In this document: positions 734 to 23,754 of the stretch, piece after piece
Position numbering within the stretch: the stretch's first letter is position 1
How the letters are laid out: each line of letters starts with the position of its first letter
Source: an uncultured Flavobacteriaceae bacterium
Lineage (GTDB): Bacteria > Bacteroidota > Bacteroidia > Flavobacteriales > Flavobacteriaceae
Length of the DNA stretch: 64,000 nucleotides
Direction: 5' to 3'
NCBI GenBank assembly: GCA_947500435.1
Contig: CANMRV010000003.1
Location: forward strand, 291,271 to 355,270
Program-made: the position numbers and the translations under genes
Notes under the pieces: generated by a model
Databases searched by the model: none
What the model was told of the DNA's origin: nothing
The model's input: only the letters and a program-made list of their open reading frames with translations

Positions 734-3700
734 TTATCGCACAATTATCTTTCGAAGTGAACTACCGTAGGGTGTTTCCAAAAGCACGGCATAAACCCCT
801 GAAGGCATGCCCGAAAGATCAAAAGGAATACTATACGACGTATCTCCCGTTCCTCTTTCAGAGGCCATCATGGCGTTATTAGCAAAATTGAAAATCTTAA
901 TACTGATGTTGCCTCGTTCAGAAAGGGAAACGTCAGCAGTAAATCTTCCCGTTGTTGGATTAGGATAAATAATAAAATCTTCTACTAGTTTTCTAGAATC
1001 ATCATCTTCGTTAACGCTACCATCTTTTGCAATAACTAATACTTTTTTAGTTTTTTGTGCAATGCAATCACCGCGTTGCGTAACTAGGGTGATTTCGTAT
1101 TCGCCTGCTTGGTCAAAGATTAATTCGACCTCATCGGAATCTTGTTTTACCACAGTGACTCCTTCCGGCACCTGCCATTCAACAACTTCAGGAAGTGGGA
1201 AACTAATATCTACAGCCACTAAAACTTCGCCAGTAAACACTTGACTAGACACGGCGAATTCTGCATCAATTTCATTAGTGCTCACCTCTAAAAATAGGGT
1301 TCCTATGGCAGTACAACCAGAAGCGGTTTGTACGGTAACGGTATAGTTTCCTGTGGTGGTTAGTGTGACATTAGGTTCAGAACTTGAGAATCCATTATCC
1401 GATGTCCATGTGTAAGTCGCTGTTTCATTTTCAACAGTTGCATCGAGCTCTAGTACCTGGTCGACACAAAGCACCCGATTTGGGCCTAAGTCAACTTCTA
1501 GAGCTAATGGGTCTTCAAGGGTATAGTTACGTGTCAAAGGTCCGTCACCAAAACCTGTAATGGTAACAGAGTAATTACCCGCACCTAAATTCGAAATGGT
1601 ATTTGTAATTTCCCCAGTACTCCAGAGATAGGTAAAAGAACCATTTCCTTGATTAACGAGAACTGAAATACTTCCATTGGTATCGCCTTGACAGCTTGGT
1701 TGTACAATAGTATCTTCAACGATATCAGGTTGCGTTACCTCATAGGTTTCGGTAGTATTACAACCATTGGCATCAGACACGACAACCGTATAATTATCAG
1801 CAGCAAGAGCTGTAAGTGTTCGGCTATTTCCTGCAGGAGTATTGTCTGAATCTTTGGTCCAGTTTATGGTGTAAGGGTTTGATCCACCAGTAATAATAAG
1901 GGCGATGCTCCCGTTATTTGCTAAATATTCTGAGACGTTTGTTACGGTTGCTTCTAATTGAAGCGCATCAGGCGCAGGATTTATGGTTATCTCTAATAAA
2001 TCAGAACAGCCATTAGCATCAAACACCTCGACAAAATAATCACCAGCTTCAATATTCGCTAAATTTTGAGACGTTGCACCATTACTCCATTGAAATGTAT
2101 AGGGAAGAGTTCCTCCTTGAACATTAATATTTATGCTACCACTGTCATCACCGCTACAAACAATATCAACTTTGTTTTGAAGCGTCACTTGTAAGGCATT
2201 TGGTTCAGTAAGAGGAAGTACGTTTGAATTTCGACTTATTCCATTTGCGTCGGTAACTCTTAAAAAATAGTTGCCGGCAGCAAGGTTACTAATCAGGTTT
2301 GTGGTTTCGCTTAGAGCAGTATTATTTCCTTCCTGAAACCATTGATAGGTATAATCAGGCACCCCTCCTTGAACGTCTGCGATTATTTCACCAAATTCAT
2401 CTCCGTTACAAAGAATTTCCTCGTTTATAGTAAGCATGATTATAATGGCTCCTGGTTCATCAATTGTAATAGAATCTGAAGTAAACGAACAACCATTTTC
2501 GTCTTGAACCGTTACCACATACTCGCCGGCAATCAAACCTGAAATATCTTCGTCGGTTGTTGGTATAAAACCAGGTGGGCCAACCCAACTAAAATTCAAA
2601 TCACCAGTACCCCCACTAGCTGCAATATCAATGGCACCATCTGCGAAACCTGCTGCACTAAGGGGGGTTGCTACTGTACTTAAAGTAATTGCTGGTGGTT
2701 CATTGATAGTGAATGCGGCATCAGCAATACAGTCATTGCTATCTCTTACTCTTATACTATAGGTTCCTAAACCTAAAGCATTAAATGAGGCTTGAGCTTG
2801 GTAATTTACACCAGCATCAATAGAGTATTCATAGGGCGGAATACCGCCACTTACAGTAATCGTCACGGAGCCATTTGCTTCACCAGCACATTGCGCATTA
2901 GTAGAAACTACTTGCGCATCTAAAATGGCAGCAGGGTCACTAAGTGTAACTGGGTTGCTGCTTACCACGTTAGGGGGGTTGACGGCATCATCGGTAACCG
3001 TAAGCGTATACGTTCCTTGAGGAACATTGTTCAGGTTCGGACCGGTTTCACCAATCAAATCACCTAAAACAGCTTCTGACCATTGATAGCTAAGGTTGCC
3101 AGTTCCTACGACCGTGGTTTGAATATTACCATTGTTTTCCCCAAAGCATGGATTTTTTGTAGAACTGACGGTTATGGTGAGGATACCAGGCTCGGCAATT
3201 GTAAAAATTCTTTCTAGGGTACAGCCATTTTCATTTGTAACAATGACCGTATATACTCCAGCAGCTTTCCCAATCAGGTTCTGAGTGGCTTCGTTAACTG
3301 TTCCTGGGCCATTCCATTGATAGGTATAATTTGTGGCATCACTAGTGAATGCCAATGTTATACTTCCATCACTTGCATTTTGTGCAGTTGCGTTTGTTAC
3401 TATGATGTTGGGTTCATCCCAGACAATTGGTGGTGATGGGTCTATGGTAACTCCCGAAGTAATTAGGTCACAACCGTTGCCGTCCCTTATCCAAACGGAA
3501 TAGGTGGCCGCAGCTAGATTTTCAAAAAGTGGTGGATCTTGAAAGTCTATTCCATCAATACTATAAGTATAGTCTTGAGGGTTTCCGGGTTCACCGCCTT
3601 GAACGTTTGAAATTACGATTGTGCCTGTATCATTGGCGGCACAACTTGCTGTTGTGACAATATCGGCGGTAATGGCTTGTGGTTCCACAAGAACAACCGC

Positions 3701-21294: not shown

Positions 21295-23754
21295 TTAATT
21301 CTTGTTTATATATCGCAACTCTAAATTATCAGGGTCGGTAATACCCAAAGACTTTTTATAATAGAAATCGATAATCTCCTTTTCTAAAAAGTACTCCAAT
21401 TCATCGATATCTTCGTTTTTATCATACATCTCGTATGATTTTATCGACATACGGTCCTTAAATTCCTTTAGATAACCACTTGGGTTTTCGATATCTTCAA
21501 TGCTGTTGTAGTTGGCAAATTGAACTTCCATCCAACGATGCCCTGCTAACTTCTCTCCGCGATCGGTATGTTCTGCTATTATTTTATCGAATTGGGGCTT
21601 TAAGGTCTTATCGGTATCTGTATAATCTTCGATGGCCTTCTTACGCAAAGGATGTTTATCAACGATTACTTTGGTTTCAACATAGAGTTTTTCTAAAACA
21701 AAATCGATTCGCTTGATATCATCACGAATACGATCGACGACGTCGAACAAAGCTTTGTCATAAATACCTTTAAAATCCCCATAACTATATAATTCTACGA
21801 GAAAGTCCAAGGCACTTTCTTGATATTTATTTTCTCTTTGTTGGTCTTTTGTGGTAGCCAACAGAATAGTCAGCTCATCTCTTTTAAACTGTGGAATATC
21901 TGCAAATTGGTTACTTTCAAAGACATTAGTCAATTGGTTGCTCACCTCAGATAGTGTTCCACTATAAGAAACATTGCGATATCTGAAGCTAACCATAGCC
22001 TCACGATTTCTAGAGGTTCTTTCATTTGGTATTCGTTGACCTCGTTTGATATTCAATTTAAAATTGTCGAAAGCATAACTGTAGCCAAAAGTAATCGTAA
22101 GATCACGACCTGTATTTAAAGTAGAATTTCTAAAAAGCATCAAGAAATTCAAATTTAGATTATGCTTTTCCAGCCAAACGTAACTACTGCCCAATCGGAA
22201 GTTTAACACATCACCCTGTTGTTCTCCGTTTGTAAAAGAGGTGTTGTACGAACTTGAAAAATTGGTGCGTAATTGCTTGTCAAAAAATTGTTTTCCGATG
22301 GAAAGCGTAGGTCCCAAAGTCATATTATCATCTTCGGCGACCGTATTATACGATACGTTTGCTGCTAAAGAAATATTGAGTGCCCGCTCAGGATATCCTA
22401 TAGTATAACCAGCAACACCATTGTAAAATTGATTTTCACCGCCTTCAATCGTTTCACCCTCTTGCTGATTGGTAGAGTTCTGATATACCAAATTCAAATT
22501 GGTTGTCTGCTGTTGCGTTTCAGTTTTCTTTACAATATAGTTGGCGCCCAAATTCGCGTTTTGCGAGATTTGGCGATAGTTTAAGGTATCTACGTTATCA
22601 AATGCACCTACCTGATTGATGTAATCGAATTGATCACGAATATTGGTGTAGGACTGAAAGTTAGAGTATGACCCGTTGATTCCTAAACGTTCTGAGGCAG
22701 TATAGTTCGCGTTTAATGAACTTACAATTCGTTGTTGGTCTGATGTTTTAGCATTGTCCAAATTGTCTTGCTGCAAACCAGCATTTATGCTAAGGTTCAA
22801 TTTATTATCAAACAAAGTTTGACTTGCGTTTACCGTAATATTTTCTAAATCGTTGTTAAAGTAATATGCTCCCAAAGTTTTATAATTGGGGTCGATACGT
22901 TCGTAGCCTGCACCAATAGTCCCATTTCCTGCAGGATAGTTGAACGAAGCATTTAAAGCATTATAATAATTGGTGCTAATATTTTCATCTAGTAAAAAGG
23001 ATAGAATGCCGCTTTCTGCTTTTGCATCCGTTAGTTGCGTATCTTCCGTGACTCCTGAAATGGCATATTCCACACGAATTTGTGCTTTGTCAAAAAGCCG
23101 AAATTCTGATTCAAAAGAGACCACAGCATTGTCTTTGGGCGCTAAGCCTAATTCAACAGGAAAAGGGTTGTCCAAAGAATTTGCATCATCCGAAGCCTTA
23201 AAAAGAATAAGTCCGAGTTTCATAAAATCGAAGTCGTAGGCTGTTTTTAGTCCGTATCCTTTTCGTTGATATGCTGTTAGTGCTCTAGGTTCATCCGCAT
23301 TATATTCAGTAGCTCTTAGTAGGCGCCCATACATGGCACTTATTTGAAACTTTCCTTCGGGATTCAAATCAAATCCACCACCTGTAAATTGATGTCCCGC
23401 TAATGTGTATGGTGAAAAGGTCATATTCACATCACCAATATGAGCAGTGGCCCATTTGTAGGAAGGATGTAAACTTAGACGATTGAACTTAAAAGGATTC
23501 TGAAAATTAAAATCTTGATTAGAATAAGTGAATGATAATGGAATATTATATACCCCTGCAATATTGAAGTTGAGATTTCCAGTTAAAAAATAGGTGAGGT
23601 CTTGCCTATTCGCTGTACCGTCATAGTATACGGCATTTGCAGCAACGCCGCCATTATAGCGCAGCCACTTTTCTTTGCCCAATTGGTCAAAGTTGATACT
23701 TTGGGAAATGCCAAGAGTGCAAAACAGCATGAAGGGGACAATTAGTTTGGACAA
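21295..23754 (-). CDS. Outer-membrane beta-barrel-like protein with an unusual C-terminal soluble charged/helical domain
   Basis: 819 aa. Apparent TTG start, with a stop codon just upstream in frame. Signal peptide MSKLIVPFMLFCTLGISQS. First ~560 aa are rich in N/S/Y/G/T with alternating beta-strand-like pattern, and the last ~260 aa are K/E/D-rich. Its stop lies 41 nt upstream of the toxin gene start. Confidence 0.5.
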   Translation of the reverse strand: MSKLIVPFMLFCTLGISQSINFDQLGKEKWLRYNGGVAANAVYYDGTANRQDLTYFLTGNLNFNIAGVYNIPLSFTYSNQDFNFQNPFKFNRLSLHPSYKWATAHIGDVNMTFSPYTLAGHQFTGGGFDLNPEGKFQISAMYGRLLRATEYNADEPRALTAYQRKGYGLKTAYDFDFMKLGLILFKASDDANSLDNPFPVELGLAPKDNAVVSFESEFRLFDKAQIRVEYAISGVTEDTQLTDAKAESGILSFLLDENISTNYYNALNASFNYPAGNGTIGAGYERIDPNYKTLGAYYFNNDLENITVNASQTLFDNKLNLSINAGLQQDNLDNAKTSDQQRIVSSLNANYTASERLGINGSYSNFQSYTNIRDQFDYINQVGAFDNVDTLNYRQISQNANLGANYIVKKTETQQQTTNLNLVYQNSTNQQEGETIEGGENQFYNGVAGYTIGYPERALNISLAANVSYNTVAEDDNMTLGPTLSIGKQFFDKQLRTNFSSSYNTSFTNGEQQGDVLNFRLGSSYVWLEKHNLNLNFLMLFRNSTLNTGRDLTITFGYSYAFDNFKLNIKRGQRIPNERTSRNREAMVSFRYRNVSYSGTLSEVSNQLTNVFESNQFADIPQFKRDELTILLATTKDQQRENKYQESALDFLVELYSYGDFKGIYDKALFDVVDRIRDDIKRIDFVLEKLYVETKVIVDKHPLRKKAIEDYTDTDKTLKPQFDKIIAEHTDRGEKLAGHRWMEVQFANYNSIEDIENPSGYLKEFKDRMSIKSYEMYDKNEDIDELEYFLEKEIIDFYYKKSLGITDPDNLELRYINKN

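Follow-up and report, generated by a model that had tools for sequence, protein, structure and literature searches.

A probable TANFOR-class toxin locus within a conserved block of surface-protein genes in an uncultured Flavobacteriaceae bacterium

A recurrent block of six genes

We investigated a stretch of 64,000 nucleotides from an uncultured Flavobacteriaceae bacterium (hereafter the window; contig CANMRV010000003.1, positions 291,271 to 355,270 of the forward strand, assembly GCA_947500435.1). It carries a block of six genes, A to F, encoding a polymorphic toxin (B), its probable immunity protein (C) and four further proteins (A, D, E and F), the last of which ends in a type IX secretion system (T9SS) sorting domain. 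Coordinates of the open reading frames (ORFs), given in Table 1, are those of a program-made ORF list of the window. All six ORFs are co-directional, and the A-B, B-C, C-D, D-E and E-F spacers measure 41, 9, 71, 16 and 3 nt, the same values that an earlier reading of this DNA from its letters only (the sequence-only reading) had given for six consecutive minus-strand genes. Signal-peptide-like N-termini, judged by eye, are present on A, B, D, E and F, while C has no signal peptide and is predicted to be cytoplasmic. In the homolog lists, the nearest homologs of the window proteins are from Zobellia, Maribacter and Arenibacter.

Table 1. Features of the block and of its surroundings, in window coordinates.
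Feature	Coordinates	Strand	Description
A	21295..23754	-	819 aa (possibly 811 aa), predicted outer-membrane protein
B	15236..21253	-	2005 aa, polymorphic toxin, whole gene
B aa ~36-170	20744..21148	-	divergent TANFOR-like N-terminal domain, right behind the signal-peptide-like stretch
B aa 309-381	20111..20329	-	fibronectin type III (fn3) domain, PF00041, E 3.4e-6, 27.6 bits (cutoff 25)
B aa 870-881	18611..18646	-	HELGHGVFALQH, zincin-type HExxH motif, close to the end of the constant region
B aa 1853-1986	15296..15697	-	Endonuclea_NS_2 / EssD-like nuclease toxin domain
Variable cassette	14495..18463	-	B aa ~931-2005 (pre-toxin region and toxin) and gene C; low GC content
C	14495..15226	-	243 aa, probable cognate immunity protein
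D	9432..14423	-	1663 aa, secreted, nearly all beta-strand, no Pfam or NCBIfam family
E	7355..9415	-	686 aa, secreted, tandem fn3
E aa ~325-581	7673..8443	-	similarity to tandem fn3 arrays
F	734..7351	-	2205 aa, surface protein with SprB repeats, PKD and a T9SS type-A C-terminal sorting domain
F aa 2128-2205	737..970	-	type-A C-terminal sorting domain
Terminator-like hairpin	671..690	.	~45 nt 3' of the F stop codon; found by consensus scan and visible in the sequence
123-aa ORF	25155..25526		between a bioF-like aminotransferase gene and a bioD-like gene
gldE	40628..41956		
gldD	41946..42512		

The D family, nearly always annotated as 'hypothetical', is found at at least 573 places in species-representative genomes, with hosts among Flavobacteriaceae, Chitinophaga, Cytophaga, Ohtaekwangia, Xanthocytophaga, Apibacter, Tannerella and Prevotellaceae. 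The best 80 of these at least 573 D-centred loci were taken with 10 kb on either side, their ORFs were called, and the six window proteins were used to score them. They span Flavobacteriia, Chitinophagia, Cytophagia and Bacteroidia, and the counts of A and B in them are limited by the 10-kb flanks. In 77 of the 80 loci E adjoins D, separated from it by 1 nt in the median, and in 74 of them F stands behind E, here at a median distance of 4 nt; translational coupling of D, E and F is probable. Fifty loci contain the B scaffold and 31 contain A, the two being adjacent in 23 (median gap 14 nt). At least six gene orders were observed, all of them co-directional: ABDEF (19 loci), DEFB (22 loci), DEFA, ADEFB, DEFAB and EFAD. 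Where B comes after D-E-F, a PKD-domain protein of about 450 aa usually lies between F and B (27 loci). When the loci were centred on B, both F and A were recovered in four out of four. D is the most faithful marker of this set of genes.

As the linkage outlasts repeated rearrangement across classes, it points to a functional unit and not to a chance adjacency, and the comparison of gene orders strongly supports the grouping of A, the B scaffold, D, E and F into one conserved module across the phylum. The functional block put forward by the sequence-only reading is found again in relatives, with five families linked in shuffled orders over four classes. If a toxin-immunity operon A-B-C had instead come to lie by chance beside an unrelated adhesin operon D-E-F, the 71-nt C-D spacer, which is the widest in the block and has room for a promoter, and the transposase genes that separate B from D in some of the Arenibacter loci would be easily understood. 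We give this explanation hardly any weight, because the five families stay linked over four classes despite the reshuffling of their order.

Toxin B, its cassette and the TANFOR class

The N-terminus of B presents a hydrophobic stretch that ends, by eye, in ...LSTAQ, with S as the next residue. At the other end of the protein, Pfam identified PF13930 (Endonuclea_NS_2) at aa 1856-1985 with an E-value of 1.8e-16 and 61 bits against a cutoff of 27, and the search of PDB sequences returned EssD (8guo_B, E 7.8e-15; 8gun_A, E 2.1e-13). Both matches agree with the nuclease-tipped toxin recognised by the sequence-only reading. Between these ends, the comparison of 49 B homologs from related loci showed that aa 1 to about 510 are common to all of them, and that the long forms are alike over aa 1 to about 930, i.e. 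until just past the HExxH domain, with a sharp stop in seven loci. Beyond aa ~930, only the homology to the Cellulophaga locus L007 goes on, to aa 1558 at most. The extended motif HE[ILV][GA]HGxxxLxH is present in 17 of the 17 locus-encoded B homologs of at least 1400 aa, and also in one homolog that is cut off at 1052 aa by the end of its locus; it is absent in the remaining homologs of 1047-1357 aa and in the three forms of about 750 aa that were inspected. These data strongly support the description of B as a modular toxin, probably Sec-exported, with a constant scaffold, shared with relatives, made of a TANFOR-like domain, an fn3 domain, a conserved beta domain and the HExxH domain.

Across D and the constant portion of B, the GC content is 0.39-0.43. 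It drops from 0.39-0.41 to 0.29-0.37 precisely where the variable part of B and gene C lie, and goes up once more in D. Neither B aa 1000-2005 nor C finds a match anywhere in the 80 D-centred loci. Among 18 long B proteins, the C-terminal tips of 300 aa are related in 7 of 153 pairs, and related pairs cross genera, e.g. that of Zobellia (L004) with that of Cellulophaga (L007). When the C-terminal 450 aa of the toxins of ten relatives were submitted to Pfam, one was recognisable, a Toxin-deaminase in place of the nuclease.

C starts 9 nt downstream of B and belongs to a small family of 42 representatives, stand-alone proteins of about 240 aa. Its homologs P0366 and P0365, on two independent contigs, are located 8 and 16 nt 3' of ORFs sharing 41-43% identity with the toxin tip of B, and one of these two preceding ORFs carries PF13930. 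Pfam returned only noise for C at E<=0.1, with no match to DUF600/EsaG, and NCBIfam had no match for it either; no significant match, EsaG included, was obtained among PDB sequences, and a metagenome scan found no relatives of C. The position of its homologs directly behind homologous nuclease tips makes C the probable cognate immunity protein of B, and the toxin/immunity pair named by the sequence-only reading is thereby supported from two other contigs. In another relative, P0364 (490 aa), a tandem duplication has placed two C-like halves in one chain.

Taken together, the hypervariable tips, the drop in GC content and the C homologs behind homologous tips lead us to consider B and C as a polymorphic nuclease toxin and its probable immunity protein, swapped as one cassette. 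That the C-terminal ~1075 aa of B, with their EssD-type nuclease end, represent a horizontally exchanged cassette travelling with C is strongly supported by these comparisons. The nuclease domain itself is homologous to that of the EssD/EsaD-EsaG pair of the Staphylococcus aureus type VII secretion system (Endonuclea_NS_2; 8guo, E 7.8e-15), which differs from the present pair by a wholly different delivery scaffold and secretion route and by an immunity protein, EsaG/DUF600, to which C has no similarity.

The TANFOR toxins were defined as a class of Bacteroidetes polymorphic toxins by Jana, Salomon & Bosis (2020; PMC7073777), in an analysis based on annotated domains. According to that article, they are proposed as a major antibacterial and anti-eukaryotic class in Bacteroidota, SprB, Fn3, PKD and Por_Secre_tail domains are enriched in their neighbourhoods, more than 95% of the TANFOR genomes have a T9SS, and a split arrangement of toxin and immunity genes also exists; T9SS-dependent export of the toxins is presented there as speculation. 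The first 582 aa of B match two proteins that carry the label 'TANFOR domain-containing protein', P0170 (label from NCBI; E 3e-134) and P0239 (label from JGI; E 3e-98). Both are themselves hit by the TANFOR model TIGR02542, P0170 at aa 27-159 (E 1.3e-8) and P0239 at aa 24-153 (E 2.6e-12), and the alignment of B aa 21-500 with P0170 aa 9-487 (45% identity) spans this TANFOR region. Because of its homology to these two labelled proteins, which are TIGR02542 matches, we consider B to be a divergent member of the TANFOR class; unlike the TANFOR toxins detected by TIGR02542, it would represent a divergent branch that the model misses.

The TANFOR toxins, as described in PMC7073777, share with B the signal peptide, which in B is a signal-peptide-like stretch, the TANFOR-type N-terminus, the fn3 domain, a variable C-terminal toxin that may be a nuclease, and a downstream immunity gene. 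Their neighbourhoods resemble the window in their SprB, Fn3, PKD and Por_Secre_tail genes and in the T9SS/gliding background. The sequence-only reading had suggested that the arrangement may represent an undescribed delivery system, which is plausible; the toxin scaffold is not new, since the class and its SprB/Fn3/PKD/CTD neighbourhood (CTD, C-terminal sorting domain) were published in 2020 (PMC7073777). The sections of the article consulted here make no mention of the domain-less barrel A, of the 1663-aa D, of how strictly D, E and F are coupled, or of the HExxH motif conserved at the constant/variable junction. No later paper on the delivery of TANFOR toxins was found in the searchable literature.

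Accessory proteins and routes of delivery

A matches no Pfam or NCBIfam family and nothing significant among PDB sequences. Its AlphaFold2 model predicts an outer-membrane-type beta-barrel of about 26 strands, behind which comes a C-terminal domain, roughly 200 aa long and all helical; this lends support to the outer-membrane protein that the sequence-only reading had seen in this gene. The presence of a barrel gene beside the gene of a giant protein, itself tipped with a polymorphic toxin at its C-terminus and accompanied by an immunity gene, recalls the CdiB-CdiA-CdiI system of contact-dependent inhibition (CDI, type Vb), where a barrel gene and a cognate immunity gene likewise accompany a huge exported protein with a swappable toxin past a conserved junction. 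A could then be a TpsB-type transporter of two-partner secretion (TPS) for a TpsA-like B, and the 23 loci with adjacent A and B, at a median gap of 14 nt, agree with such a pair. However, A has no match to POTRA or ShlB/Omp85, and about 26 strands are predicted for it instead of 16; B has no Pfam match to a TPS/haemagglutination-activity domain or to haemagglutinin repeats; and A is apart from B in the DEFB, ADEFB and EFAD orders. The window also differs from CDI by the absence of FHA repeats, by the additional genes D, E and F and by the link to T9SS. A CDI-like two-partner system is thus highly improbable.

D is equally blank in Pfam, NCBIfam and PDB sequences, which agrees with the remark of the sequence-only reading that this 1663-aa protein has no motif that could be placed. 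Its structural model is that of a large, nearly all-beta protein that may be barrel-like. E shows no significant Pfam fn3 match, although its central region (aa ~325-581) is similar to the tandem fn3 arrays of fibronectin and RPTP-delta in the phmmer search of PDB sequences (E 4e-6 to 1e-5), and NCBIfam assigns to E a CbhB fn3 region (E 3.4e-10). The designation of E as an fn3 protein is hence supported through PDB, though not through the Pfam fn3 family.

F contains 10 SprB-repeat stretches (PF13573, E 8e-72) and a PKD domain (PF00801), and its type-A CTD is recognised by both PF18962 (Por_Secre_tail; E 1.7e-13) and TIGR04183 (E 7.8e-11); the search of PDB sequences with F gave nothing significant. 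These sequence matches strongly support the assignment of F as a T9SS type-A substrate, i.e. the SprB-repeat T9SS adhesin announced by the sequence-only reading. F is the only protein of the block with a T9SS sorting signal: neither a type-A nor a type-B CTD was found on A, B, D or E at E<=0.01 in Pfam or NCBIfam.

This distribution of sorting signals bears on a second route, in which, along the lines of the hypothesis of Jana, Salomon & Bosis (2020), B would pass the outer membrane by way of the SprA translocon of T9SS as a non-canonical substrate, e.g. bound to the CTD-bearing F, with A, D and E as surface anchors or chaperones. F with its type-A CTD is the commonest neighbour of B, gldD and gldE lie within the window, and the enrichment of SprB and CTD domains together with the presence of T9SS in more than 95% of the TANFOR genomes, reported in PMC7073777, would be in keeping with it. 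On the other hand, B, D, E and A are devoid of type-A and type-B CTDs, the C-terminus of B is occupied by the toxin domain, and the large barrel A of the module itself is left unexplained. We rate export of B by T9SS as unlikely, if still to be reckoned with.

F also resembles SprB of Flavobacterium johnsoniae in being a large SprB-repeat surface protein exported by T9SS. The sprB operon of F. johnsoniae has the layout sprC-sprD-sprB-sprF, with accessory genes upstream of sprB. The likeness of D-E-F to sprC-sprD-sprB is one of layout only, two genes that look co-transcribed and code for exported proteins of unknown function preceding a SprB-type gene. Unlike the SprB system, F has a type-A and not a type-B CTD, and none of the six block proteins matches the PorP_SprF family. 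Nevertheless, the conserved module could serve adhesion or surface motility in the first place, as a relative of the SprB gliding systems, with the toxin tips as secondary, lineage-specific additions. This would account for the SprB-like character of F and for the many B homologs of about 750 aa that have an acidic coiled-coil tail and no toxin. Against it stand the CTD type of F, the lack of a PorP/SprF gene in the block and the fact that in all full-length long B forms a hypervariable tip comes after the HExxH domain. Moreover, short B genes are followed by large and small ORFs of unknown identity (146, 1589 and 227 aa in L081; one of 921 aa and small ones in L088), which fits the split toxin/immunity arrangement described in PMC7073777. 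A primary role in adhesion or motility is, in our view, improbable.

The reading that we prefer, with a probability of about 0.6, is that the block is a complete TANFOR-class locus whose accessory proteins form a surface platform that presents or exports B. In such a scheme, A, D, E and F would build an outer-membrane and cell-surface platform, on which T9SS would place F. The large barrel A, possibly with the barrel-like D, would anchor B or conduct it across the outer membrane, and E and F would hold it at the surface. The HExxH domain may free the nuclease cassette when a bacterium nearby is touched, and the freed nuclease would kill cells that lack C. The contact-dependent antagonism or adhesion module using T9SS that the sequence-only reading hinted at is retained here as a toxin-centred functional unit in which F has a T9SS CTD, and its idea of the adhesin as anchor is kept as a supposition; what does not stand is its novelty, as the association with SprB, fn3 and T9SS has been known since 2020 (PMC7073777).

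Several observations weigh against this preferred reading. TIGR02542 gave no NCBIfam match on B aa 1-930 even at E<=10, and its scores on P0170 and P0239 are under the curated cutoff of 67 bits. The structures that A and D match are barrels of a generic kind, and the matches of D in Foldseek, where it was compared with LptD and large outer-membrane barrels, have TM-scores of only about 0.1. No Pfam peptidase family matches the HExxH domain of B, and its proposed role as a releasing protease is drawn by analogy only. In addition, 18 loci have neither A nor B in range, which is mostly an effect of the flank limit. Finally, about half of the sampled B homologs are short (~750 aa) and toxin-free, and given these forms the primary role of the module could be other than toxin delivery.

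The short and long forms of B can be compared with the 'cargo' and the 'evolved' effectors (VgrG, PAAR, Rhs) of the type VI secretion system, whose conserved core is either bare, with a separate toxin, or fused to a variable toxin. The type VI system differs in that there is no homology to the present proteins and no contractile machinery in the block, and the analogy is one of logic only. By this analogy, the B scaffold may be a carrier of a structural kind whose toxin tip can be swapped, like evolved VgrG, PAAR and Rhs effectors or CdiA.

While the toxin locus itself belongs to a known class, what the present comparison adds are A and D in a phylum-wide module, the tight D-E-F coupling and the HExxH motif before the constant/variable junction. 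A and D are invisible to a neighbourhood analysis based on domains, and no description of either was found in searchable papers. The exit of TANFOR toxins and their delivery to the target are hereby narrowed to a defined five-family module, whose D family is found at at least 573 places in species-representative genomes, and the locus offers a predicted processing site (HExxH, just before aa ~930) together with a nuclease-immunity pair. Only tentatively, and with less than even confidence, do we propose that the B scaffold together with A, D, E and F makes up a previously unrecognised outer-membrane machine for toxin export and presentation across Bacteroidota, in which A and D would be the dedicated conduit and platform, T9SS would supply only the fibre F, and the TANFOR scaffold would be the carrier with an exchanged tip. 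Should A and D prove to be a conduit dedicated to this task, a new system of secretion or delivery would be at hand in a phylum that matters in oceans and soils, in fish disease and in the mouth and gut; the module would then be a new protein-delivery system instead of a set of T9SS cargo proteins.

Surroundings of the block and individual relative loci

Two of the translation starts of the block can be placed differently. The database copy of A, P0241, has 811 aa and starts 8 codons inside the TTG start of the ORF list (window 23730-23754); the longer form gives the more convincing signal peptide (MSKLIVPFMLFCTLGISQ). For B, Met19 is an alternative start, with which the A-B spacer would grow to about 95 nt.

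The scan for sigma-70 promoters and intrinsic terminators found sites no more often than in shuffled sequences and none within the internal spacers. For the Bacteroidetes -7 motif TAnnTTTG, neither the region upstream of A nor any of the five spacers holds an exact match, and over the window it is no more frequent than chance would give. The scans are uninformative as to the operon structure. The hairpin 3' of F may mark where the transcription unit ends, although terminator-like sites are no commoner in the scan than in shuffles; it is terminator-like when read on either strand. The ~730 bp on this side of the block (window 1-733) contain no ORF of more than 89 aa in any frame, and an Rfam scan of the whole window gave no match.

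Upstream of A, the opposite strand carries biotin-synthesis and other housekeeping genes. Within the biotin cluster, the 123-aa ORF of Table 1 has no Pfam match. The carriage of gldD and gldE, reported by the sequence-only reading, was verified, both genes being found at 40628-42512 of the window.

Relatives in Flavobacterium, Cellulophaga and Zobellia carry the module as well (L004, L007, L039, L063 and L087). Among the relatives, an extra family of 440-630-aa proteins lies between E and F (38 ORFs in 17 loci, L024:7565-10898 and 16 more, in Tenacibaculum and Flavobacterium). One of its members has a weak SprB repeat, and the family is a lineage-specific expansion of the module. IS200-like (Y1_Tnp) transposase genes are found between the toxin gene and D at L001:9220-9789, L003:8556-9471 and L008:9309-9878, i.e. 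at the position that the immunity gene has in the window; L001 and L003 are from Arenibacter and L008 is from a metagenome-assembled genome of an unclassified member of the Flavobacteriaceae.

L081 (assembly SRR4164027), whose B is P0170, named from Aquimarina spongiae, has the order D-E-F-PKD-B(731 aa)-146 aa-1589 aa-227 aa-lipocalin-A. The 146-, 1589- and 227-aa ORFs after its B (L081:12196-18126) have no Pfam match and are candidates for a separately encoded set of adaptor, toxin and immunity protein. A 115-aa ORF in L088 (Zhouia spongiae, CP094326.1, 340256-362316) corresponds to part of the 1589-aa protein. L088 has the order F-PKD-B...A and, after B, the 921-aa ORF and small ORFs mentioned above. 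A 119-aa gene of the bAvd/23S_rRNA_IVP family stands between PKD and B in L088, and another gene of the TANFOR/fn3 kind, of 960+ aa, is situated with a lipocalin gene just upstream of its F-PKD-B unit, which suggests that F-PKD-B sub-modules can duplicate in tandem without a D-E pair of their own.

In L082, from the fish pathogen Flavobacterium davisii (CP067378.1, 980695-1002566), A is distributed over 2 ORFs and D over 4, and two TANFOR-type B genes (623 and 1028 aa) are present, so that this locus looks like a decayed module with a pseudogenised apparatus and persisting B genes. In L087 (Flavobacterium sp. B183), which has the order F-A-B, A consists of two overlapping ORFs of 431 and 389 aa (L087:7516-9965), either a frameshift/pseudogene or a sequencing error.

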